Of a stretch of 20,080 nucleotides of DNA, positions 4,827-19,872 are shown one piece after another; position 1 is the stretch's first letter; each line of letters starts with the position of its first letter. The stretch comes from Promethearchaeota archaeon (GTDB lineage: Archaea; Asgardarchaeota; Lokiarchaeia; Sigyniarchaeales; SOKP01), in NCBI GenBank assembly GCA_004524535.1, contig SDNY01000066.1, positions 1 to 20,080 of the forward strand. Direction: 5' to 3'. A program made the position numbers and the translations under genes. The notes under the pieces were generated by a model. That model was not told the origin of the DNA. It worked only from the letters and a program-made list of their open reading frames with translations, and did not search any database.

Positions 4827-5450
4827 ATGAGTGATAATATAGAAAAATATATTAGACGTAAAGTGCATAAAGGTTCAAGTTCAAAAATTGCCCAAAAATT
4901 TGTTGATGCTGGATTAGAAAAGATTAGATCTTGTATAAATTGTGGAACATGCACTGGATCTTGTCCTGCAGGCAGAAGAACAGCATATCGCACACGATCC
5001 GCAATTAGAAAAGCTTTAACAGGAGATGAAAGTGTATTACAAGATATCGATATCTGGATGTGTAGTACATGTTATTATTGTTATGAAAGATGCCCAAGGG
5101 ACATTCCTGTTACCGATATGATTATCAAGCTCAGAAATATTGCTGTTGAAGAGGGTTATATTTTAGATTCTCATTTTGGACTTGCTAACGATATATTTTA
5201 CGCTACGGGACATGGTGTACCCGCAAATGCAGAAAATCAGAAACAATGGAGAGATTTACGAGAATCTTATGGACTCCCCCCATTGCCACCTACGGTTCAT
5301 TCCTATCCAGAAGCAGTCGAAGAGTGCCAACTTTTAATGAAGGAAGTTGGTTTTAGAGATTTATTAGACAATGCTGCTAAATTAAAAGCTCAAAGAAAAG
5401 CGGAAGCGGAAAAAAATGCTAAAGAAGAAGCTGAGGAGGAGAAAAAATAA
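4827..5450 (+). CDS. hdrC: Heterodisulfide reductase subunit C
   Basis: Two [4Fe-4S] motifs CINCGTCTGSCP and CSTCYYCYERCP, IWMC motif, TGHGVP; charged C-terminal tail. Confidence 0.93.
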   Translation: MSDNIEKYIRRKVHKGSSSKIAQKFVDAGLEKIRSCINCGTCTGSCPAGRRTAYRTRSAIRKALTGDESVLQDIDIWMCSTCYYCYERCPRDIPVTDMIIKLRNIAVEEGYILDSHFGLANDIFYATGHGVPANAENQKQWRDLRESYGLPPLPPTVHSYPEAVEECQLLMKEVGFRDLLDNAAKLKAQRKAEAEKNAKEEAEEEKK

Positions 5451-5494
5451 TGAGTGGGTATTCAGAATATAAATGGAGATATGGTTTCTTTTAA
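5450..5494 (+). pseudogene. hdrB: 14-codon hdrB 5' stub (MSGYSEYKWRYGFF*) translationally coupled to hdrC
   Basis: TAATG overlap with the hdrC stop; 36/43 nt identical to the hdrB start at 9299 (MSKYSDYKWRYGFFLGC). Confidence 0.85.
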
Positions 5495-5527
5495 TTCTTC
5501 TTAATCTAATTTTTTTTATAGTTGATA

Positions 5528-5977
5528 TCACACCTTTAGTATTGAATCATAAGGTAATGGGGGGATGCAAAATTCAGTGTTTTGCTCTAAAAAACCAGCA
5601 ATCTCTGCTTCTCTTATAAGATCGAGAAAAAGGGGGGCATTTTTCATTCCTAGTATAGTTAGTAACCAATGTTCAACTATCCTCCCTAAGCTAAGTAACC
5701 CTGCTTCTGCCCATTGTTCAGAAATTTCTATTGTTTTGTCGAGTTGTTTTTTTAGGTAATCAGGTTCAAGTGTAAACTTTGGGGGTTTATGATAAATCTC
5801 TTCAATGCACACTTGTATCTCATTTTCTAATTTATTCCAAAGGAATTCAAACTGGGGCTTTATTTGGCGTATAGCATCTTTACAAATCCATTCTTTTATT
5901 TCAGATTCTTCTCTCGTTTTTAAAGTTAATAATCTTATGCCATTTAGAAGAATAGTCTTCTTCAAGATATTTCTCAT
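5528..5977 (-). pseudogene. Hypothetical helical protein, probably a fragment (possibly DUF4145/HEPN-like)
   Basis: AGLLSLGRIVEHWL...LDLIREAEIAGFL resembles the N-terminal part of DUF4145-like domains but ends soon after; abuts the hsdS fragment head-to-head with no promoter space. Confidence 0.35.
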
Positions 5978-6685
5978 ATGTTATTTAAATCTTTATTTTA
6001 TGATTTCAAAATTAATAAAAAGGAAAAGTTACAATCTAGTGAAGTTGGAAGAATTCCAGAAGATTGGAATCTAAAAAAATTAGAAGATGTTACATTTATA
6101 ACTGATTGCCAACATAGTAAAAAACCAAAAAATCGAGAAAAAGAAAATTATTTACTTCAAGTATATAATATTGGAGAAAAAGGACAACTAGACTTAACTG
6201 ATCCTTATTTTATTTCTAATGAAGATTATCAACATTGGATTAGGAGAATAGAAGTAAAAAAAGGAGATATAATAATTTCCAAAACTGGAAGAGTGGGAGC
6301 CATAGCTCAGATACCAGATATGAAAGCAGCAATCGGGAGGAATCTAGTATGTATTCGCCCTAATTCTGAATTTTTGTCTCCTGAATATCTGAAGGAATAT
6401 ATGTTATCTAATAAAATGAATAATGAAATTAGACTAAAAACTAGTTCTGGTACAATCTTGGATAGCCTTCATGTAAAATATATTAAGAAATTAAGAATTA
6501 TTTTGCCATCGGAATCTCTTTTAAAGAAATTCAGTTAAAATTTAAAACCTTTTCATGAAAGTATTAATTTAAATAGTCGTGAAAATGTAATACTTACAAA
6601 ATTTAGAGATTTACTTCTTGATCAAGTAATTTCAGGAAGAATAAGAATATTTAATCATGAAAAAATTGATGATTTAAATGAGTAA
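5978..6685 (+). pseudogene. hsdS: Type I restriction-modification specificity subunit, C-terminal half, with internal TAA at 6536-6538
   Basis: Begins at the central conserved region (FKSLFYDF...SEVGRIPEDW) and has one TRD (KGDIIISKTGRVG). The same frame continues past the TAA with NLKPF...RDLLLDQVISGRIRI to a TAA at 6683-6685 overlapping the hsdR start. Confidence 0.85.
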
Positions 6686-6881
6686 AATAACAGAAGAAGA
6701 ATTAGAAATCGCATCTCTTGATATACTTAGAGACATTGGTTATTCAATTAAATTCGGTCCTGATATTTCTCCTTCAGGAATAGTTCCAGAAAGAAATTCC
6801 TATAGAGAGATCTTCTTAAAGGAACGGTTTTATTCTGCCTTAAATTACATTATTCTTAAAATATTTGAAGAAATAGGGTGA
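6678..6881 (+). pseudogene. hsdR: Type I restriction endonuclease subunit R, N-terminal fragment
   Basis: ITEEELEIASLDILRDIGY...GPDISP...PERNSYREIFLKERFYSAL is a typical HsdR N-terminus; only 67 aa against ~1000 aa expected. Confidence 0.8.
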
Positions 6882-6964
6882 GAATTACGATTATTAAGAA
6901 TTGTTAAAAATAGAAAACATTCAAACATGAATAAAAGGGCTCTCAAGAGGTAATAAATTTTCAG

Positions 6965-7273
6965 CTAAATCTTTTCTACTTTTTTAGTTTTAAGATTAAC
7001 AAAATACTTGGTATTACATTCATCGCTTACTTCTAATCCCCCCGAAATCGATTGAATTGAGGTTATGTAAATTTCTTGAACGTCGCGTTCGAGACGCGGG
7101 TCGTATTCAACGTCATATATCTTCAAATCCCATAAAAGTTCGTCAGTCTTTGCGTCTCTAGCTTCTATATAACCCAATTTATTCAAGGGAGCAATATACA
7201 TAACATTATTGTGAATTAATGGCTGGGCCCTTTTTGGAGGTCCTCTTGAAGGACTAATTATTGGCGGCTTCAT
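6965..7273 (-). CDS. Hypothetical beta-rich protein (PQQ-repeat-like GYIEARDAKTDELLW motif)
   Basis: 102-aa ORF with protein-like composition and one PQQ-blade-like motif. Confidence 0.55.
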   Translation of the reverse strand: MKPPIISPSRGPPKRAQPLIHNNVMYIAPLNKLGYIEARDAKTDELLWDLKIYDVEYDPRLERDVQEIYITSIQSISGGLEVSDECNTKYFVNLKTKKVEKI

Positions 7274-7384
7274 GGGTAATGGCTCCCATTATCCTTTATC
7301 TTTGATTCCCGAATCATTCTTAGCAACACCTAGCTTCGTAAGGTTCTTTAAATATTTTTAGGAGGGAAACCAAATAAATGTATC

Positions 7385-7845
7385 TCATGAAATTGGAGTC
7401 ATATATTTTGCCCATTGTGCTATCCGAGAAAGAATTCTCTTTGTTTTTGTTTTATTCGTTTTATTGATACCCATCATTAATGAATGAGCTCTGTTTTTTC
7501 TTTGCTTCTTATTTGGGTTTTTATAGGATCATGCTGAATATTAATAGGAAGATTTGCTTCTTGGATTATTTTTTTAAGAGATCCTGCATTCATTTCCACT
7601 ATTCCGATTTTTTCTAAAGAAGGAGTTGGCAAATGGGCTAAAGTAAATGCAGGTGTTGCATATTTACTCCAATCAACTGAAAGTCCTTGCTCTGCTTGAG
7701 TAGTAATAAAAAAGTTGGGATAAATTCGGTTTAATTCTGGCCAAGTTTTCCATAATCTCTTATGTACTCCTCGATATAGGAAATGGTCATCTAAGAAGTT
7801 TTCATCCGGCTCTGTTTCCCAGCTTAAAGGATTTTCTTCAACCAT
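7385..7845 (-). pseudogene. Frameshifted putative ADP-ribosyltransferase-fold (toxin-like) protein
   Basis: FLYRG...GLSVDWS...QHDP in the listed ORF; a shift near the A6 run (7494-7499) gives NRAHSLMMG...KRILSRIAQW ending at a TGA at 7385-7387. Confidence 0.5.
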
Positions 7846-8066
7846 TCACTTACCACCAATCCCACCAATCCCGCAAAACGCTTAGGAAATGAGATTCCAA
7901 TATAGCCATGCTTTCCCATCGGGCGGATAACATCCCAAATGTCGATTTTTCCAATTTCAACGTCATCTACGTGAGGTGCTACGTTATCTTGCATGAACTT
8001 CCACACCTCAGCTTTATATTCAATTTCTTTCTCGCTTAACGCTGAGTCTGGTAATATGACTTCCAT
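7824..8066 (-). pseudogene. Acyl-CoA dehydrogenase N-terminal fragment
   Basis: LSEKEIEYKAEVWKFMQDNVAP...MGKHGYIGISFPKRFAG matches the ACAD N-domain; it breaks off at a GGATTGGTG tandem duplication. Confidence 0.75.
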
Positions 8067-8187
8067 TTTATTTTCACTTTGAAATTATTATTATAATAAT
8101 TATATGTCTGTTTGAAAATTAAATAGTTTAATTTTTTGTAGAAACTATGTCTAAAATTGATAAAAGGATAAAATAAAAGAAAATTAA

Positions 8188-8934
8188 TTAGGGTTTTCCG
8201 TTTTTCTTAAGGGAGATCCCTAACGGAAGGTTTTCAATGAGTTCGAAAAATCGGTTTCTTACGGTTACTTCAGTAACTTGACTTATTTTAGCAATTTTTC
8301 TCTGCGTTCTGCGTTCTTTGCATAAGATTGTGGCTGCATATATTGCTGCGGCACATACGCCAGTTGGCCCTCTACCGGAAGTTAATCCTCGCTGCTCAGC
8401 GAGTTTAATGATCTTTTTTGAGATTTTATGGCATTCTTGAGTTAAATTTAATTCACTAATAAAGCGAGGTAAGAAGTCAATAGGATTGGTGGGGTTTAAA
8501 TTTAGACAAAGTTCATTGGAAATAAATCTAAAAGAACGTCCAATTTCCTTTTTATCTACTCTTGCAATTTCAGCAATCTCATTTAACGTACGTGGTACTT
8601 TATAAAGTCTGCAAGCTGCATATAAAGACGCTGCGGCTACACCTTCAATACTTCTACCCCGGATTAAATGTTTATCAACTGCATCCCGGTAGATTTTTGC
8701 TGAGCATTCTCTTAAATTCTTTTGTAAATCTAAATTTGATGCCATCCTATCTAACTCGCTTAATGCGAATGTTAGATTTCTTTCAGTTGCATCTGAGACT
8801 CTAATTCTACTCTGCCATTTGCGGAGTCGATAAATTTGTCCTCGTAATTTTGCCGGAATCTCCTTTCCGAAAATATCACGGTTTTTCCAATCAATCATGG
8901 TTGAAAGTCCCTTATCATGAATCATATACGTCAT
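8188..8934 (-). CDS. tfb: Transcription initiation factor IIB lacking the N-terminal Zn ribbon (possible pseudogene)
   Basis: [29 protein letters not shown], two cyclin repeats ([33 protein letters not shown]), VTEVTVRNR. In-frame upstream RTRTGAP is conserved, but no Zn ribbon or start codon lies further up. Confidence 0.85.
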
Positions 8935-8995
8935 GGGGGCCCCTGTACGAGTTCTATCATAATTCCTATCACACCCTGGATTTTTGTCTTTTGGT

Positions 8996-9015
8996 GAGTG
9001 TATTTCGATACACTC
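8996..9015. other. Perfect hairpin GAGTGTAT-TTCG-ATACACTC
   Basis: 8-bp perfect inverted repeat with a 4-nt loop upstream of the truncated tfb. Confidence 0.6.
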
Positions 9016-9135
9016 TAATTTTGCCCTCCTCCCCCTATTTAATTTTTTGACCTTGTATTGAGGTTACGTGGCAGGAATCTCCCTTTCATTAATCGATTAT
9101 TAATCGGAAGATTGAAGTTTTCTAAATTCAGCCCA

Positions 9136-9163
9136 AATAATCACTAAATTTATAGTGATTATT
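9136..9163. promoter_or_regulatory. Inverted repeat AATAATCACTA-N6-TAGTGATTATT, candidate operator between divergent tfb and hdrB
   Basis: Perfect 11-bp arms with a 6-bp spacer. Confidence 0.55.
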
Positions 9164-9298
9164 AGTATGCTCCAAATAAATGTCTGAGTTTTAAATTTTA
9201 AACACATCGCATTAAATTGGTATAAATAATAAAAATAACTTTTTTAACATTTTATTAATTTAAAACCTTAAGTTAACAGAATAAAATTTAAGATTAAA

Positions 9299-10284
9299 AT
9301 GAGTAAATATTCTGATTATAAGTGGAGATATGGATTCTTTTTGGGCTGTGTAAACTAGAAATCAAATCGATTCTAGACATAATTCCAAATAGATATCCTA
9401 TGATTGAAAGAAGTATTAGAGATGTTTTTGATGAGCTTGGAGCAGAAATATTAGATATGCCTGGTGCATCCTGTTGTCCTGCACCTGGAGTGTTTCGCGC
9501 ATTTCATATACCTACATGGTTAGTGATTGCTGCTCGAAATATTTCTATTGCTGAAGAACTTGGTGTCAGCCCGATGACAGGATGCAATGGATGCTATGGG
9601 ACGCTCAGAGATGCATGGTATGATTTAGAACATAATCCAGAAGAGAAAAAGCATGTAAATGAACTTCTTGCAAAAGTAGGACGGGAATATAAGGGAACTT
9701 TCGAACCTAAACATGTTGTTCAAGCTCTTTATTTAGATATGGGACTTGATTACTTGAAGGATCAAATAAAATATAAATTTAAAGATCTAAAAGTTGCGGT
9801 TCATTATGGTTGCCATATTGTTAAACCGAGCGATAAACGCCCTTGGAATGGAGAATATGAAAATCCTGAATTTCTTGATGAGATTGTTGAATTAACGGGT
9901 GCAAAAAGTGTTCCATATAAAGATAAATTTATGTGTTGTGGTGCAGGCGGAGCTGTAAGAACTGCTGTAAAAGAAGTTGCTGCTGATTTTACTCGTGAAA
10001 AACTAGTTAATATGCGGGATGCAGGAGCAGATATTATCATAAATTGCTGCCCTTTCTGCCATCTACAATTAGACCTCGGCCAAGTAGAAGTCAATAATTT
10101 CTACAAAGACATAATTGGGGAGCCTTTTAAGATACCTGTTATTTATATTACCCAATTATTAGGAGTGGCAATGGGTATTGACCCCAACAGGCTCGGATTA
10201 ATAAAAAATCATGAGTTGAAAGGTGTTTCGCCTTTTATTCCTATTGAACCATTTTTAGATATGGTTAAGGAGCAATTAATTTAA
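9299..10284 (+). CDS. hdrB: Heterodisulfide reductase subunit B, join(9299..9353,9383..10284), 318 aa after removal of a 29-nt insert
   Basis: ATG 9299 gives MSKYSDYKWRYGFFLGCV then TAG inside the insert. The downstream frame gives IPNRYP, SCCPAPG, GCNGC, HYGCH, CCGAGG, CPFC. Joining restores FLGCVIPNRYP and CX31CC. The track's GTG 9322 start yields a non-homologous N-terminus. Confidence 0.9.
9354..9382 (+). other. Candidate archaeal BHB-type (bulge-helix-loop) mRNA intron, 29 nt
   Basis: Inner stem CUAGAA/UUCUAG, AAA bulge 9352-9354, 4-bp helix GUGU/ACAU, AAU 9381-9383, exon-exon stem 9332-9345 with 9384-9398. Confidence 0.75.
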
Positions 10285-10539: not shown

Positions 10540-10884
10540 TTGAATATAGCAGAATTAAGTAAGTTTGGAATCGAAGGCCCTAATGAAGGCAACCTTATCA
10601 TTGATATCTATGCCGATTGGTGCGGTCCCTGCCAGTTCGTATCTCCTCTTCTCGAAAAACTCAGAGATGAGGGTTTAATTAATTTGATAAAAGTAGATAT
10701 TGATCAAAATCGGCCGTTAGGTCAATTATTCGGCATAACTGCAATACCAACTCTTTTGTTTTTTAAAGATGGACAACTATTGGAAAAGACCATTCAAATT
10801 AATGGACAAAGACTTGTTCAAAATGGTATGATGATTGGAGCTACTGGAGAAGAGACCTTTAGAAAAATACTTGAACAAATGTAA
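10540..10884 (+). CDS. Thioredoxin
   Basis: YADWCGPC active site, VDID, GITAIPTLLFFKDG; TTG start. Confidence 0.9.
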   Translation: MNIAELSKFGIEGPNEGNLIIDIYADWCGPCQFVSPLLEKLRDEGLINLIKVDIDQNRPLGQLFGITAIPTLLFFKDGQLLEKTIQINGQRLVQNGMMIGATGEETFRKILEQM

Positions 10885-10942
10885 GTTGAAGGAGTAATTA
10901 GATTTAAAATATGATATTCATATATAAAGGATTGTTCTAAAA

Positions 10943-11356
10943 ATGTCTGATGAAGAACTAGAGAATATAAAGAGGGAAAAAGCAAAAAAAATGTTAAAAC
11001 AGCTTTCCATACCACAAAACATTATAAATTTAAATACTATTGAACAGTATAGAGATTTATTGGAGAAGCATCCAGACAAAGTAATTATTATGGACTTTTG
11101 GGCCACTTGGTGTGCTCCTTGTAATATGTTCGCTCCAGTATATGAAAAACTACAACAAGAATATGCTAATCAATTCATTTTTGCTAAAGTGAATGTCGAT
11201 ACAAATCAAGTATTAGCAAGTCATTATAAAATAACCGGAATTCCGACTACTCTTTTTGTTAAGAATGGTACAATAATTAATAAAATAGTAGGAGCTGCAA
11301 ACTATAATAAAATGAAACAAATTCTTGAAAAAATTAAAAAAAAGTCTAATAAATAA
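10943..11356 (+). CDS. trxA: Thioredoxin with archaeal N-terminal helix
   Basis: MDFWATWCAPC, FAKVNVD, ITGIPTTLFVKNG; MSDEELENIKREK leader. Confidence 0.92.
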   Translation: MSDEELENIKREKAKKMLKQLSIPQNIINLNTIEQYRDLLEKHPDKVIIMDFWATWCAPCNMFAPVYEKLQQEYANQFIFAKVNVDTNQVLASHYKITGIPTTLFVKNGTIINKIVGAANYNKMKQILEKIKKKSNK

Positions 11357-11382
11357 ATTTTTTAGTCAAAAAAAGTAGAAAA

Positions 11383-11907
11383 ATGAAAGCAATCGGAATT
11401 GTTGGATCTCCAAGAAAGGATGGAAATACTGCTTATTTAACAAAACAAGTTTTAGATGGATTAGAAGAAAAATTTGAAACCGAAATGATTTTTTTAAAAG
11501 ACCAAGAGATAAATCCCTGTGAGGCGTGTCATTCTTGCATAAAAGAGGAAAAATGCATCATAGAAGATGATATGCAAGAACTTTACAAAAAACTCAAAGA
11601 AGCTTCAGTCATAATATTATCTAGCCCCGTGCATATGGGGGGCATAACATCTCGATTAAGGATGTTTATGGAGCGGATGTGGCATCTTAGAAAAGGACAA
11701 CTGAAAGACAAAATCGGTTCATTTATAGTAATTGGAAGACGTGATCTTGGGAGTGCTGTAAATGAAATGGAAGAATTTTTGACACGATTAAAATTAGTAA
11801 AAATTCCAGGGGTTATCAGTTATGGCTTTAATAAAGGGGATATTAATAAAGACAAAGAAGCACTAAAAAATGCTCAAGGACAAATTAATCAAATTCTTAA
11901 TCTATAA
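11383..11907 (+). CDS. Iron-sulfur flavoprotein / NADPH-dependent FMN reductase family
   Basis: GSPRKDGNT FMN loop, CEACHSCIKEEKC compact 4Fe-4S motif, DDM, SPVHMG. Confidence 0.9.
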   Translation: MKAIGIVGSPRKDGNTAYLTKQVLDGLEEKFETEMIFLKDQEINPCEACHSCIKEEKCIIEDDMQELYKKLKEASVIILSSPVHMGGITSRLRMFMERMWHLRKGQLKDKIGSFIVIGRRDLGSAVNEMEEFLTRLKLVKIPGVISYGFNKGDINKDKEALKNAQGQINQILNL

Positions 11908-12042
11908 AAAGCTAAATTGAAGATTACGTATTATTGTTCCTTGATTTAACTATTAATTAGGACTTTAAACCTTGCAATAAATAAATAAAAAAAAAAAAAT
12001 AAACCTCAAATATATTATAATGCAATTATTTTTATCTAAAAA

Positions 12043-12813
12043 GTGGAGCTTAACTTGAAGATAGATGACTACCAATTAGCGGCCGAATGGATTTTAGAAT
12101 CTAAATATACTGTAATTTTTTCTGGAGCGGGTGTCTCAGTTGAAAGTGGGATTCCGCCATTTCGTGGAGAAAATGGGTTATGGAGCAAATACAATCCAAT
12201 TTTTTTAGAAACAAGTTATTTTAAGAAATATCCAAAAAAATCTTGGGATTTAATAAAAGAAATTTTTTATGATTTTTTTGGTCAAGCAAATCCTAATGAG
12301 GCACATTATATTATTGCAGAATTAGAAAAAAAAGGATTAATTGATGCAATTATTACACAGAATATTGATAATCTTCATCAAAAGGCGGGAAGTAAAAATG
12401 TTATAGAATTTCATGGAACTTCAAAGACTTTAACATGTTTAAATTGTGTTCAAAAATTCAATAGTGAAAAATTTTTAAATAAATTGCCACCTCATTGCCC
12501 TAAATGTGATGGTTTACTAAAACCGGATTTCGTATTTTTTAGTGAACCAATACCAGATAAAGCTCAGACACTTTCGAATAGATACGCATCAATGGCCGAA
12601 TTATTTATATTAGTAGGGACCACTGGAGAAATAATGCCTGCTTCTTTAATTCCGTATCTTGCAAGAGAAAAAGGCGTACGAATGATTGAAATTAATATTG
12701 AACCAACTAAATATACTCAGACAATTGTCGATATTCTTTTAAAAGGAAAAGCAACGGAAGTATTTATGAATTTAAAAAAATATTTAAATTTGAATAATAC
12801 TCAAAGTAATTAG
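12043..12813 (+). CDS. cobB: Sir2-family NAD-dependent protein deacylase
   Basis: GAGVSVESGIPPFRG, ITQNIDNLHQKAG, FHG, CxxC...CxxC, LKPDFVFF, VGTTG, EINIEPT. Confidence 0.93.
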   Translation: MELNLKIDDYQLAAEWILESKYTVIFSGAGVSVESGIPPFRGENGLWSKYNPIFLETSYFKKYPKKSWDLIKEIFYDFFGQANPNEAHYIIAELEKKGLIDAIITQNIDNLHQKAGSKNVIEFHGTSKTLTCLNCVQKFNSEKFLNKLPPHCPKCDGLLKPDFVFFSEPIPDKAQTLSNRYASMAELFILVGTTGEIMPASLIPYLAREKGVRMIEINIEPTKYTQTIVDILLKGKATEVFMNLKKYLNLNNTQSN

Positions 12814-15336: not shown

Positions 15337-17334
15337 ATGACAGAAACAGAAAAAGAAATAATAGTAACTGGGAATGAAAAGCCTCGAATTGGAGTGTTTG
15401 TTTGCCACTGTGGAGTTAATATAGCGGGTGTTATCCCTATAGAAGATTTAGTAGAATATGCTAAAACTCTACCCGATGTAGTATTTGCTACAGAATATAA
15501 ATTTATGTGTTCCGATGTCGGACAAACGCTTATCAAAGAAAAAATTCAAGAACAAAATCTTAATCGAGTGATCGTTGCTGCTTGTTCTCCCCGTATGCAT
15601 GAACCCACATTTAGACTGGTATTAAAAGAAGCTGGTTTAAATCAATTTTTATTCGAGATGGCTAATATTAGAGAACATAGCTCTTGGGTCCATATGAAAG
15701 ATCCTGAAGGAGCCTACGAAATTGCTAAAGATCATATTAGATTAGCTGTTAATAAAGCACGAGAATTAGTACCGTTAGAAGTCCAAACTGTCGAGGTTGA
15801 CCCATCATGCTTAATTATCGGTGGTGGAATCGCTGGTATGAATGCTGCGTTAGATCTTGCCACCGAAGGATATAAAGTTTATTTAGTTGAAAAAACGCCA
15901 ACTATTGGCGGTCATATGGCACAGTTGGATAAAACATTCCCAACCATGGATTGTAGTGCTTGTATTCTTACACCAAGGATGGTTGACGTTGCGCGGAACG
16001 AAAATATCGAGCTCTTAACGTATTCTGAAGTAACTGATGTAACAGGATATATTGGTAATTTTGAGGTAACAATTTTGAAAAAACCGCATTATGTCGATCA
16101 AGAAAAGTGTACTGGCTGTGGAGTTTGTATTGACCATTGTCCTGTCTCCGTTGGAAATGAGTTTGATCTTGGGTTGGCTACAAGAAAGGCAATATATATT
16201 CCATTCCCTCAAGCAGTTCCAGGTCAATATACGATTGATATGGATAGTTGTATAAGATGCGGGATATGTGCAAGCCCCGATGTGTGCGAGCCTGAAGCGA
16301 TAGTCTATGATGATGAGCCCGAAGAGATAAAAGTAAAAGTAGGCACGATAATAGTAGCTACTGGTTGGGATTTATATGATCCTACAGAATTAAAACAATA
16401 TGGGTATGGAAGATATCCAAATGTGATTACAGGGCTGCAAATGGAACGATTATTAAGTTCATTTGGACCATTATTGGGAAAACCCGTAAGACCTTCTGAC
16501 CTTAAGGAGCCGCATAGTATTGCTTTTCTTCAGTGCGTTGGCAGTAGAAATTTTAGGGAAGGAGGGAATAAATATTGTTCGAGAGTATGTTGTATGTATG
16601 CAACAAAGCAGGCGAGACAGTATAAGGAGAAACATCCCGATGCAGAAATTTATATTTTTTATATGGATATCCGAGCCTTTGGAAAGGGATATGAGGAATT
16701 CTATGAATCTGCTGGGAGAAATTATGGGATTAATTATGTAAGAGGCAGAATTGCTGAAGTAAGAGAGGGAGAAGACCATAAAATTATTATTAGATCTGAA
16801 GACACACTTCTTCAGCAACCAATTGAATTAGAAGTGGATATGTTTGTTCTTTCATGTGGTTTAGAACCAAGAGCAGATGCTGATAAAATTACCTCGTTAT
16901 TAAGAATTCAGCGTTCCGGAGATGGCTTTTTTATGGAAGCTCATCCGAAGTTAAGACCGGTCGATACATTAACTGAAGGGATATTTGTTGCTGGTGTAGC
17001 TCAAGGGCCAAAAGACATTCCGGATGCTGTAGCACAGGCAAAGGGAGCAGCATCTAGCGCTGCAGCTTTAATGGCCAAAGGTGAAGTGGAAGTTGAGCCT
17101 TTTTTCGCCGTCGTTTCTCCTGAGAGGTGTATTGGTTGTGGAATGTGTGTTGAAAATTGTGCCTATGGAGCAGTCGAACTCGTTGAAGATAGACGATTTG
17201 GAACAATAGCCTCCATCAACCAAGCATTATGTAAAGGCTGTGGGGCATGCGCAGGAAATTGTAGATGTTCCGCAATTAATATAAAAGGATTTACTGCAGA
17301 ACAAATATTTGAAATGATCACAGGGAGGTTTTAA
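15337..17334 (+). CDS. hdrA: Heterodisulfide reductase subunit A (FAD, Fe-S; Cys form)
   Basis: RIGVFVCHCGVNI, ACSPRMHE, IGGGIAG, LDKTFPTMDCSACIL, QCVGSR, CSRVCCMY, GPKDIP, C-terminal 2x[4Fe-4S]. Confidence 0.97.
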   Translation: MTETEKEIIVTGNEKPRIGVFVCHCGVNIAGVIPIEDLVEYAKTLPDVVFATEYKFMCSDVGQTLIKEKIQEQNLNRVIVAACSPRMHEPTFRLVLKEAGLNQFLFEMANIREHSSWVHMKDPEGAYEIAKDHIRLAVNKARELVPLEVQTVEVDPSCLIIGGGIAGMNAALDLATEGYKVYLVEKTPTIGGHMAQLDKTFPTMDCSACILTPRMVDVARNENIELLTYSEVTDVTGYIGNFEVTILKKPHYVDQEKCTGCGVCIDHCPVSVGNEFDLGLATRKAIYIPFPQAVPGQYTIDMDSCIRCGICASPDVCEPEAIVYDDEPEEIKVKVGTIIVATGWDLYDPTELKQYGYGRYPNVITGLQMERLLSSFGPLLGKPVRPSDLKEPHSIAFLQCVGSRNFREGGNKYCSRVCCMYATKQARQYKEKHPDAEIYIFYMDIRAFGKGYEEFYESAGRNYGINYVRGRIAEVREGEDHKIIIRSEDTLLQQPIELEVDMFVLSCGLEPRADADKITSLLRIQRSGDGFFMEAHPKLRPVDTLTEGIFVAGVAQGPKDIPDAVAQAKGAASSAAALMAKGEVEVEPFFAVVSPERCIGCGMCVENCAYGAVELVEDRRFGTIASINQALCKGCGACAGNCRCSAINIKGFTAEQIFEMITGRF

Positions 17335-17336
17335 AA

Positions 17337-17804
17337 TTGAGCAAAGTCGTTTTTGAAACAGAAGATGAAGAAGAAGTTAAAGTAGATAAGGATTGGAAGC
17401 CTAGAATTCTTGCATTCCTTTGTAATTGGTGCTCTTATGCCGGAGCGGACTTAGCTGGTGTCAGTAGAATTCAATATCCCGCAACAGTTCGAGTGGTGAG
17501 AGTACCATGCACCGGCAGAATTAATCCATTCTTTATACTCAAGGCATTAACAGATGGATGGGATGGTGTGGTGGTTTCTGGTTGTCATCCAGGTGATTGC
17601 CACTATATTAGTGGAAATTTAGTTGCAAGAAGACGTTTTGCATTGTTGAATGAACTTCTGGAGTTCTTTGGAATAGAACCAGGAAGGGTTAATTTTATGT
17701 GGGCTTCTGCTGCTGAAGGTGAACGATTCGCCGTCTTAATTGAAAAAGCAACGGAAAGAGTAAAAAAATTGGGTCCAAATAAAAGATTTTTAAAAAAGTG
17801 GTGA
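17337..17804 (+). CDS. mvhD: MvhD/FlxD [2Fe-2S] subunit
   Basis: FLCNWCSYAGADLAG, RVPCTGR, GCHPGDCHY, WASAAEG; TTG start. Confidence 0.95.
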   Translation: MSKVVFETEDEEEVKVDKDWKPRILAFLCNWCSYAGADLAGVSRIQYPATVRVVRVPCTGRINPFFILKALTDGWDGVVVSGCHPGDCHYISGNLVARRRFALLNELLEFFGIEPGRVNFMWASAAEGERFAVLIEKATERVKKLGPNKRFLKKW

Positions 17805-17809
17805 TTTAG

Positions 17810-18817
17810 ATGGGAATTGAAGAGGAAAATCAAAAAATAGAAAAATCTATCAGGGATATTGCCAGAGATCTTCTTAAAAATAAGGAAGTTGATGTAATTA
17901 TTGGCTATACAGAAGGAACCGTCCCCTTGAGTACTTCTCCAATAATTATTAGAGATGAAAAAGATGTTGATAAATTAGTTTGGAACAATTTTTGTTATAT
18001 TAATCTTGCAAAATATCTTGCACCTCGAATGCCACAATTAGTTGATCCTGAAAAAGGGGAATTAAAAGTAGGGATTGTTACAAAAGGGTGTGTTGGAAGA
18101 GCGTTAATTCAACTAGCTATTGAAAAACAGATCAATCTTGATAATGTTAAGATAATTGGAATTCCTTGTAATGGAATTGTAAATAGAAGGAGAATTGAAA
18201 AGGAGATTGGAGAGAAAGAGATTCTTGAGGTATCAGTATCAGAAGACAATATAATTGTGAAAGGGAAAAACTTCGAAGAATCATTTCCATTCAGTGAATA
18301 TATCAATGAGTTGTGTAAACAATGTAAAATTAAATCTCCCCCAAAAGTTGATAGCTGTGTTGGAGAATGTGGTGAATATGAATCTGTGTTTGATGAATTT
18401 AATGATGTTAAAGAATTTGAATCAAAAACCCCCGATGAAAAATGGGAATATATAAATGACCTGTTAAGTACATGTACAAGATGTTATGCTTGTAGAGAAG
18501 CATGTCCTATGTGCTACTGTAATTTATGTTTCGTGGATCAAAATAAGCCTATTTGGTTTGGAAAAACTACGGATCAAACTGAGATCTTAATGTTTCATTT
18601 AATCAGAGCTATGCATATGGCAGGAAGATGTGTCGCTTGCGGTGCGTGTAGCAGTGTTTGTCCCGTAGGAATTGATTTGAATTTAATAACGAGGAAATTA
18701 GAACAAATGGTAAAAGAAAGATATAATTTTACGTCAGGGATTGATATAGATAAGTTCCCGCCCATGATGGATTTTGAAATGGAAGATGAGCAAGAATTTA
18801 TGCTTGAGGAAGATTAA
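17810..18817 (+). CDS. FlxC-like 4Fe-4S protein (FdhB/FrhB-related)
   Basis: CTRCYACREACPMCYC, FHLIRAMHMAGRCVACGACSSVCP; position after mvhD as in hdrA-flxDCBA. Confidence 0.85.
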   Translation: MGIEEENQKIEKSIRDIARDLLKNKEVDVIIGYTEGTVPLSTSPIIIRDEKDVDKLVWNNFCYINLAKYLAPRMPQLVDPEKGELKVGIVTKGCVGRALIQLAIEKQINLDNVKIIGIPCNGIVNRRRIEKEIGEKEILEVSVSEDNIIVKGKNFEESFPFSEYINELCKQCKIKSPPKVDSCVGECGEYESVFDEFNDVKEFESKTPDEKWEYINDLLSTCTRCYACREACPMCYCNLCFVDQNKPIWFGKTTDQTEILMFHLIRAMHMAGRCVACGACSSVCPVGIDLNLITRKLEQMVKERYNFTSGIDIDKFPPMMDFEMEDEQEFMLEED

Positions 18818-18834
18818 AAAGGTGAAATTATAAG

Positions 18835-19872
18835 ATGGAACAAAAAATTTTGTTAAAGAAAGATATTGGAAAATTATATAATGAATTATCTAAAGAATTT
18901 AAATTCTATGCGCCTATCAACGAGAAAGGATATATCACATTTCGAAAAATTGAAAATCCAGATAATATCGTATTGGATTACCTAAACTCAAAAATCCCTC
19001 CTAAAGATGTACTCTTTCCCGAAAAAGATATACTTTTTGAATATCGATACGAGGGAAAAGAGGTAATTATTGAGGAGCCAAAAAATTTAGACGAGAAGAA
19101 AATAATCTTTGGAATCCGACCATGCGATGCCTATAGCTTTGAATTATTTGCGAACTTTTTTTCATTCCATGGGAATTGCAAAGATGAGATTTATCTGACA
19201 AAGAAAGAAAATACTGTTCTTATAGGGATTGGGTGTAATTCCCCCCGACAAACATGTTTCTGTACTTCAGTAGGAGGTCATCCATTTAAAAAAGAAAATG
19301 TCGATATATTTTTAGTTGATCTGGGGAATAAATATCTGGTCGAGTCAATCAGCGAGAGGGGAGAAGCGATTGTAAAAAGTCTATCTTGGCTTGGAAAAGC
19401 AAATGATGAGGATAAACAAAAGGCAGAAGAATTATCAAAGAAAGCAGAAGAGATGATTACTACACAGATAGATCCCGATAAAATAGACAAGATCTTGGAC
19501 GAAAATTTTCAGCATCCAATTTGGAGTGAAATCAGTGAATCGTGCATAAGTTGTGGTACATGTGCATATTTATGTCCTACATGCACTTGCTTCGATGTTA
19601 TAGATGAAAACGATGCTTATCATAATCGTGGGAGAAGAATACGAATTTGGGATACTTGTCAATCTTGTCTTTATACGATGGAGACAAGCGGTCATAATCC
19701 ACGAGGCTCTAAAATAGAACGTTGCCGGAATCGTATTATGCATAAATTTAGCTATTATCCAAAAAATTATGATTTAACTGGCTGTGTTGGCTGTGGACGT
19801 TGCGTTTTATATTGTCCCGCGAATAATGATTTAAGATATATTCTCAAAGAAATTGAACAAATTGAATCATAA
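18835..19872 (+). CDS. FlxB / AsrA-like 4Fe-4S dicluster protein
   Basis: FGIRPCD, CFCTS, CISCGTCAYLCPTCTCF, RIWDTC, HKFSY, CVGCGRCVLYCP. Confidence 0.88.
   Translation: MEQKILLKKDIGKLYNELSKEFKFYAPINEKGYITFRKIENPDNIVLDYLNSKIPPKDVLFPEKDILFEYRYEGKEVIIEEPKNLDEKKIIFGIRPCDAYSFELFANFFSFHGNCKDEIYLTKKENTVLIGIGCNSPRQTCFCTSVGGHPFKKENVDIFLVDLGNKYLVESISERGEAIVKSLSWLGKANDEDKQKAEELSKKAEEMITTQIDPDKIDKILDENFQHPIWSEISESCISCGTCAYLCPTCTCFDVIDENDAYHNRGRRIRIWDTCQSCLYTMETSGHNPRGSKIERCRNRIMHKFSYYPKNYDLTGCVGCGRCVLYCPANNDLRYILKEIEQIES

Follow-up and report, generated by a model that had tools for sequence, protein, structure and literature searches.

How can a gene be read whose start codon leads, after 18 sense codons, almost straight to a stop, while its remaining 300 codons are open in another frame? 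The question is raised by hdrB of a Promethearchaeota archaeon, on a 20,080-nucleotide (nt) stretch of DNA that we call the window (contig SDNY01000066.1 of assembly GCA_004524535.1, positions 1 to 20,080 of the forward strand; contig C162 of a 3.66-Mb genome, 99% complete). Here, we argue from the anatomy of the locus, related gene copies, RNA folding, selection on the exons, and DNA and RNA reads that the two frames are likely joined in the mRNA: the 29-nt insert after the first base of codon 19 would be a genuine mini-intron of the bulge-helix-bulge (BHB) type, spliced by the endonuclease EndA and the ligase RtcB.

The split hdrB gene and the fold at its break

From ATG 9299 the hdrB frame reads MSKYSDYKWRYGFFLGCVN and stops at TAG 9356-58; its 18 sense codons encode a typical HdrB N-terminus (MSKYSDYKWRYGFFLGCV) and are followed by AAC and the TAG. 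The other frame is that of GTG 9322 to 10284, with an ATT codon at 9382-84. Deleting 9354-9382 (29 nt) creates an Ile codon from A9353, T9383 and T9384, and the product then reads LGCVIPNRYP with the cysteine spacing CX31CC, whereas the GTG 9322 frame gives CX40CC, counted on the translation. An earlier note on this DNA, made from the letters alone, had described the split gene, the 29-nt removal and both spacings, and these hold on the sequence and its translation. It had also called the GTG a false start, in agreement with our finding that the GTG frame fails to run into exon 2 in related copies with an insert of 30 or 31 nt. Gene callers would report a 320-aa HdrB with a false N-terminus, in which the first cluster-binding Cys is misplaced.

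As judged by family model and two CCG domains, the gene is that of HdrB, subunit B of coenzyme B-coenzyme M (CoB-CoM) heterodisulfide reductase, here in a non-methanogen. Exon 2 alone scores 355.3 bits against TIGR03288 (HdrB; cut-off 345.15), from profile position 10, and the Pfam CCG match (E 1.4e-30) covers two stretches. The intronless orthologue L005 scores 376.8 bits and matches from position 2, so that the missing piece is what exon 1 would supply. The parts of the locus are as follows.

9299..9353, + strand: hdrB exon 1, 18 codons and the first base of codon 19
9322..9381, + strand: GTG-started extension to exon 2, part of the 320-aa open reading frame (ORF), judged a false start
9332..9345, + strand: outer (exon-exon) helix, 5' strand; pairs with 9384-9398 in the minimum free energy (MFE) structure, with 6 contiguous pairs beside the motif
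9346..9347, + strand: CU, unpaired opposite the 3' bulge; departs from the canonical BHB, and the MFE structure pairs U9347 with A9381
9348..9351, + strand: central 4-bp helix, 5' strand GUGU, inside the Cys-Val codons; partner 9377-9380
9352..9354, + strand: 5' bulge AAA, predicted cut 9353/9354; invariant in 8/8 copies
9354..9382, + strand: predicted intron, 29 nt, phase 1, with the in-frame stop TAG 9356-58
9355..9376, + strand: inner hairpin, CUAGAA 9355-60 with UUCUAG 9371-76 and a 10-nt loop
9377..9380, + strand: central helix, 3' strand ACAU, pairs with GUGU 9348-51
9381..9383, + strand: 3' bulge AAU, predicted cut 9382/9383
9383..10284, + strand: hdrB exon 2, which opens with the last two bases of codon 19 and continues with 299 codons and the stop
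9384..9398, + strand: outer helix, 3' strand, pairs with 9332-45 in the MFE structure

The RNA of 9326-9404 (79 nt) folds with an MFE of -20.6 kcal/mol, against -11.5 +/- 2.4 for dinucleotide shuffles (z -3.76), and none of 200 shuffles folds as well. Every element of the fold that the earlier note had drawn (the outer stem, GUGU/ACAU, AAA, AAU opposite CU, and CUAGAA/UUCUAG) lies where it was placed, and the four central pairs have base-pair probabilities of 0.97-0.99 in the window copy. The MFE structure departs from that drawing by the one extra pair U9347-A9381, which gives a 5-bp helix and a 1x2 loop in place of a 4-bp helix and a 2x3 loop. The same architecture, including the 3-nt 5' bulge, is the MFE structure of five of the six copies folded (z -1.2 to -3.8); that of L017 has a 6-nt loop at the site of the 5' bulge and leaves the central helix open. 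With the 5' bulge and the central helix present, in a host with two EndA paralogues, the window copy is consistent with a relaxed BHB. A self-splicing group I or II intron, or another Rfam family, was considered and rejected: Rfam gives no match in the window at gathering score and none at E<=1 in 9250-9450, and 29 nt is far too short for a self-splicing intron of either group.

Where would such an intron be cut? The intron of tRNA-Pro(UGG), on contig 118 of the same genome, offers a calibration, as the anticodon stem and position 37/38 fix it at 28 nt. It shows a 3-nt bulge, a 4-bp helix (UUUG/CAAA) and a 3-nt bulge, with the cut after the second bulge base on both sides; the 5' strand has, in this order, the stem, the 4-bp helix, a 3-nt bulge and the inner helix, and the second bulge adjoins the anticodon stem on the 3' strand. 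The hdrB insert has the same layout of helix and bulges, the same cut positions and a similar size (29 against 28 nt); the tRNA motif is canonical, however, whereas hdrB of the window has two unpaired bases opposite the 3' bulge. The rule, which had been proposed for hdrB from what is known of archaeal EndA, thus fits an intron of this very genome, and on hdrB it yields C-V-I-P-N-R-Y-P in 8/8 copies, be the insert 29, 30 or 31 nt long. Cuts two bases past GUGU and two past ACAN lead to Val-Ile-Pro in all eight, and a cut 6 nt beyond the inner stem leads to an Ile codon and then Pro, again in all eight; the residue after Val is Ile in 73/95 intronless copies. The flanking bases of the L205 copy differ, which makes the cut position unambiguous, since a shift by one base would yield V-V-P there. 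Across the sequences compared, we regard this restoration of the reading frame as a stronger argument than covariation.

In the proposed mechanism, exon bases 9332-45 of the pre-mRNA would pair with exon bases 9384-98 and GUGU 9348-51 with ACAU 9377-80, AAA 9352-54 would bulge on the 5' strand, AAU 9381-83 would stay unpaired on the 3' strand, and the intron hairpin 9355-76 would close the motif. The two-subunit EndA of the host would then cut after the second base of each bulge, and RtcB would ligate the exons. Spliced mRNA would encode a 318-aa HdrB with Cys17 31 residues ahead of the CC in the first CCG motif, unspliced mRNA, read from the true start, no more than a 19-aa peptide. The cutting, the joining and the enzymes responsible are what we infer; the anatomy, the homologous inserts, the restored frame, the selection and the enzyme genes are observed here.

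Two EndA paralogues (PF01974; 107.9 bits on contig C100, 70.7 bits on C84) and one RtcB gene (PF01139; 561.3 bits on contig C101) are present in the genome. In the C84 paralogue a Ser is aligned with the His of the 'EHSKY' stretch in 5x89_A, which we take to be the catalytic His, and this fits a structural beta subunit. The closest chain to the C100 paralogue is 3p1z_B (E 7.6e-37), with a gapless alignment through the Lys44 loop; 3P1Z is the EndA of A. pernix, whose Lys44 loop is described as giving it a broad substrate range (PMC3241643). [quoted passage not shown] ARAGORN finds only 12 tRNAs in this 99%-complete genome, eight of them with introns, one call being spurious (a 2927-nt 'intron'), and the interruptions in most tRNA genes are probably more than the program can handle. 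A preprint describes Asgard tRNA genes as heavily interrupted, consistent with the low tRNA count, and the part of it available to us mentions no mRNA intron (10.64898/2026.10.13.758758).

Elsewhere in the genome, the N-termini of the other six HdrB-like genes are uninterrupted, as is cbf5. A regular expression for the intron has eight matches, of which hdrB alone forms the hairpin, and blastn-short of the intron against the genome returns only the intron itself. A genome-wide scan for further introns in coding sequences gave 41,256 BHB-like motifs (4+4+4 pairs, introns of 18-120 nt), 37,969 of them distinct. At the true cut, 451 join an ATG frame of at least 15 codons to at least 100 open codons, against 507, 469, 504 and 467 when the 3' cut is moved by -2, -1, +1 and +2 nt, and there is no excess in any length or exon-size class; the scan recovers hdrB as positive control and has no power for rare real introns.

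Relatives with and without the insert

An insert at the identical codon is found in seven more hdrB copies, in the genomes of five relatives and on two metagenome contigs (L204, L205), while about 120 other hdrB copies have none. The eight copies comprise five sequence types and three lengths.

29-nt insert: window, L004, G068, L204 and the G088 paralogue
30-nt insert: L017
31-nt insert: the G005 paralogue (L195) and L205

These lengths have three different effects on the frame; the 30-nt copy keeps the frame but contains an in-frame TAA. The copies were collected by several routes. A first search of 40 genomes, with 30 loci read (L003-L032), returned the window itself, two loci with an insert (L004, L017), 25 with a contiguous G-C-x-x-P-N-R-Y-P, and two that end with their contigs and are uninformative. 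A family-wide search (134 genomes, 104 matching at E<=1e-120) added 100 further upstream regions, four weaker paralogue rows being left out: 95 are contiguous, three carry an insert (L132, L180, L195) and two lack the anchor. A pattern blind to the insert itself, with the two exon motifs only and 24-60 free bases between them, matches 6/153 genomes of the order and 6/399 of the phylum, the same six, against 0 for the reversed pattern; by genus these are 3/9 in g1 (the window included), 2/54 in g11 and 1/7 in g3. A metagenome scan contributed L204 and L205. Finally, an exact-core scan found 71 loci in genome contigs, of which 62 bacterial ones were left out; the nine archaeal loci were read, and two of them proved to be hdrB with the same sequence over this stretch as L004 and L017. 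A scan of viral contigs gave 0 matches.

The exon GUGU, the AAA bulge, ACA and the three pairs that begin the stem (CUA/UAG) are invariant among the eight copies. In L004, of the same genus as the window and with a protein 96% identical, the insert differs by 1 nt. The inner stems elsewhere differ yet pair: CUAGAA/UUCUAG in the window, CUAAGCAAC/GUUGGUUAG with one mismatch in L017, and CUAAUU/AAUUAG in L195; that of L205 is weaker. The outer helix occurs in three different registers. Pairing holds for 93.8% of cells in the alignable core, compared with 19-54% once the partner is shifted by 1-3 columns; three of the central-helix pairs are invariant in all eight copies, and pair 26-43 of alignment A1 is G-C in five copies and A-U in two. 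This core is nearly invariant, so that the intron copies share one origin.

A maximum-likelihood tree of 24 HdrB sequences, without L017 and L204 (incomplete) and with the intron positions read by eye, places the intron-bearing copies in at least three groups, separated with good support (100/99, 98/94).

Tree group: window and L004
Tree group: G068, L205 and the G088 paralogue, within the g11 group
Tree group: G005 paralogue, among distant paralogues

Each of these has intronless neighbours. The insert is also surrounded by a tract of high identity: window 9314-9403 and G068 (L209) agree in 86/90 nt (96%), from -40 to +49 of the intron start, against about 73% in the flanks. This 90-nt tract spans two genera and is the same stretch that folds into the splicing motif; between the same two copies the exon-1 codons show 0 differences, and the proportion of synonymous differences (pS) in exon 2 is 0.69. 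The tract points to a recent transfer of the intron with its flanks. Taken together with the patchy tree, repeated transfer or gene conversion would probably fit better than one ancient gain followed by many losses.

A further and more tentative reading is that this is the first mRNA intron from Asgard archaea and a mobile one: a BHB family of 29-31 nt, spread at the same codon among the hdrB orthologues of three genera and two paralogue lineages and carrying about 90 nt of flanking exon with it, with EndA and RtcB setting the output of HdrB. We consider this possible, though less likely than not. If it were true, the roughly 90 nt carried along would be exactly what the splicing motif needs to form, and the dependence of HdrB on EndA and RtcB would make the system an archaeal counterpart of XBP1-type frame-switch splicing. 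Translation of the unspliced transcript would then compete with the fold required by EndA, since the motif starts 33 nt past the start codon.

Two further hdrB loci were noted in the course of the comparison. Locus L211 (G005:C12) has two hdrB copies about 5 kb apart, one intronless and 79% identical to the window, the other a 62% paralogue with the 31-nt intron. The orthologue at G057:C3:104327-105226 (L131; 86% identical) has one in-frame TAA in an otherwise full-length match, and no insert.

Splicing weighed against retention, bypassing and artefact

Several observations count against a spliced intron. The motif of the window is relaxed, in that CU faces the 3' bulge and the MFE structure favours a 5-bp helix and a 2-nt 3' loop. 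The window copy fails a strict test for the canonical BHB, which among the eight copies only L017 can form (outer GGGU/ACCC, bulge UUU, GUGU/ACAU, bulge AAA); even in L017 a competing fold wins and leaves the central helix at a probability of just 0.2-0.3. Opposite the 3' bulge there are two unpaired bases in the window, one in L195 and one in L205. The outer central pair is G-U in three copies, G-C in two and G.A in three. Covariation is thin: the earlier note had proposed to look among orthologues for the intron and for compensatory stem changes, and whereas the insert did turn up in the seven further copies, only one pair has changed on both sides, a count reached by 316/500 shuffles (the covariation score is reached by 8/500). 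Some of the selection signal could, in some lineages, predate the insertion. Finally, none of the three RNA runs that were searched, together with one DNA run, at 90% likeness shows a spliced junction, and 9299-9400 is without an RNA contig from this strain; contigs on exon 2 lie at 9482-9728 (run X17) and 9793-9952 (run X19).

A contig of RNA run X20 resembles a spliced product. It covers 9380-9498 and continues upstream as an intronless G-C-V-I-P, with three differences in 119 nt of exon 2. As evidence of splicing it was rejected, for its exon-1 part differs at 5/30 bases and DNA run X2 contains a similar intronless form; we have assigned it, by these bases, to an intronless hdrB of a close relative in the RNA library.

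Among the other explanations, the one that survives best holds that the insert stays in the mRNA, so that the gene is dead or makes a short HdrB from ATG 9400 or, in the 29-nt copies, from GTG 9322, with the first Cys misspaced. The missing spliced RNA, the relaxed motif and the 320-aa GTG ORF of the window would all suit retention, and the 90-nt tract might even indicate a selfish element that spread so recently that decay is not yet visible. The exons argue otherwise. Exon 2 of the window has a ratio of non-synonymous to synonymous substitution rates (dN/dS) of 0.079 against L004 (synonymous rate dS 0.26), 0.061 against G068, 0.064 against L205 and 0.099 against the G088 paralogue; relaxed selection on this exon, which the earlier note had named as the mark of an inactivating insertion, is thus not seen. 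Nor does exon 2 contain a second frameshift or stop in any copy: the six full-length copies are open for 300-303 codons, and the two that reach a contig end are open throughout. The exon 1 frame is open in 8/8 copies and begins with ATG in seven (the G088 paralogue probably starts with GTG), and its changes are mostly synonymous, with 6 synonymous and 0 non-synonymous differences between window and L205 over the last 12 codons, and 4 and 2 between window and L017.

By these comparisons both hdrB exons are under purifying selection. The conservation of exon 1 argues against translation only from an internal start, which would give no reason to keep it; the GTG frame is, moreover, lost in the 30- and 31-nt copies, and truncation would remove a Cys found in 95/95 of the intronless copies examined. 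A recent spread, as the 90-nt tract implies, would mean that the measured selection may partly predate the insert. However, the family appears old enough to have diverged into five types and three lengths, and still the bulge, the central helix and the stem are kept and no host gene has decayed, which counters this caveat. On balance we consider retention of the insert unlikely.

Translational bypassing of the kind known from T4 gene 60, or another form of recoding, would likewise leave the insert in the mRNA. An early stop with a hairpin after it is a feature of gene 60 bypassing, and in hdrB a UAG or UAA stands two codons past Val in 8/8 copies, almost directly past the break, followed by a hairpin. 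Matching take-off and landing codons were nevertheless not found, with no GUA or AAC just before the exon-2 Ile codon, and what is conserved is the BHB and not a bypass signal. As we also know of no translational bypassing in archaea, we regard this explanation as very improbable.

The weakest candidate, an assembly error or the DNA-level footprint of a small element with a TAA target duplication, can draw on the TAA repeated at 9351-53 and 9380-82 around the window insert and on the intronless form in DNA run X2, but is hardly credible, given that the insert recurs in five other genomes, two metagenome contigs and an independent run, that the 30-nt insert of L017 and the 31-nt insert of L205 have no flanking direct repeat, and that the intronless form belongs to another strain. 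The target duplication, which the earlier note had raised, is thereby rejected, the repeat being specific to the sequence type of the window. Run X2, an independent sample, contains a 1664-nt contig (record 3) that matches 9317-9407 without a gap, insert included, with changes at 9360 and 9362: the 29 bp are real DNA. The intronless hdrB form in the same run has different exon-1 bases and therefore comes from another strain. Beyond the explanations listed, the leftover probability belongs to mechanisms that we have not thought of.

Surroundings of hdrB and comparison with known systems

Upstream of hdrB the window contains the following.

4827..5450, + strand: hdrC, TIGR03290 177.7 bits (cut-off 160), Pfam Fer4_8; its stop overlaps the hdrB ATG in relatives
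5450..5494, + strand: relic of the hdrB 5' end, MSGYSEYKWRYGFF then a stop, 14 codons; 5450-5492 (43 nt) is 84% identical to 9299-9341
5495..9298, strand not assigned: insertion of about 3.8 kb between hdrC and hdrB, with an HsdS fragment, an acyl-CoA dehydrogenase N-terminus, a TFIIB-repeat gene (248 aa) and unknown ORFs (Pfam)

This arrangement indicates that the hdrC-hdrB operon is split in the window. In L004, L205 and L017 the 3.8-kb insertion is absent, hdrC running straight into hdrB, and the intron is still present; insertion and intron are therefore separate events. The sequence ahead of hdrB in the window is now AT-rich and includes a TATA-like box some 75 nt before the ATG. At the hdrC/hdrB junction of L209 (G068:C36) and L204 stands another insertion, of about 3.4 kb, placed between the hdrB ribosome-binding site and the ATG, with a 774-aa ORF that gives a weak Pfam hint of PD-(D/E)XK (E 0.051, below cut-off); about 80 nt of upstream sequence are common to these two loci and the window. 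This junction is possibly a preferred target of an unknown mobile element. Downstream of hdrB, 10540-12813 holds two thioredoxins, an FMN reductase and a Sir2-family gene, and 15337-19872 an hdrA-like gene (665 aa), an MvhD/FlpD gene and two Fe-S proteins; by its gene content the latter region looks like a heterodisulfide-reductase-type redox module.

What would a spliced hdrB mean? A full-text search found no report of a BHB intron in hdrB or in any Asgard mRNA, and in the literature searched a BHB intron within a coding sequence is confirmed for no archaeal gene but cbf5. If real, the hdrB intron would be the second case, in a core redox enzyme and in the archaeal group closest to eukaryotes, and protein-mediated mRNA splicing would not be just a crenarchaeal oddity. 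Three lengths and five types, set against about 120 intronless copies, form a natural comparative series, and the intron provides a short, defined substrate for probing what an Asgard EndA accepts.

In XBP1 and HAC1 splicing, a very short non-spliceosomal intron is removed after IRE1 has cut at two stem-loops, under the control of stress. As predicted for hdrB, an endonuclease acts together with RtcB-type ligation, and removal shifts the frame and so decides which protein is made. The enzyme there is IRE1 and not EndA at a BHB, and the switch is stress-regulated; the hdrB intron is not a member of that system. A role of RtcB in XBP-1 splicing is described (PMC8718801).

Within archaea, a 2020 paper presents cbf5 as the sole BHB intron then reported in mRNA and adds a case in the 5' untranslated region of HVO_1309 of Haloferax volcanii, where cleavage was observed in vivo and in vitro and the intron's removal appears to be needed for efficient expression (PMC7714728). 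EndA thus acts on an mRNA there, as it is predicted to do in hdrB, but the HVO_1309 intron lies in the untranslated leader and leaves the reading frame unaltered.

The cbf5 pre-mRNA intron of Crenarchaeota, reportedly described by Watanabe in 2002, resembles the hdrB insert in many respects. It is characterized as a short BHB-type intron, often with a relaxed motif, with patchy gain and loss and a hetero-oligomeric EndA of broad specificity (PMC2738675). Both lie within a coding sequence, are short and of the BHB type with a relaxed motif, are patchily distributed among relatives, belong to hosts with a hetero-oligomeric EndA and are easily taken for a frameshift by gene callers. They differ in that splicing of cbf5 has been demonstrated by experiment whereas that of hdrB is deduced, and in that cbf5 encodes an RNA-modification enzyme of a crenarchaeon, hdrB a metabolic Fe-S enzyme of an Asgard archaeon. 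In contrast to cbf5, moreover, the hdrB intron sits only 18 codons from the start, and members of its family are found both in orthologues and in two lineages of paralogues.

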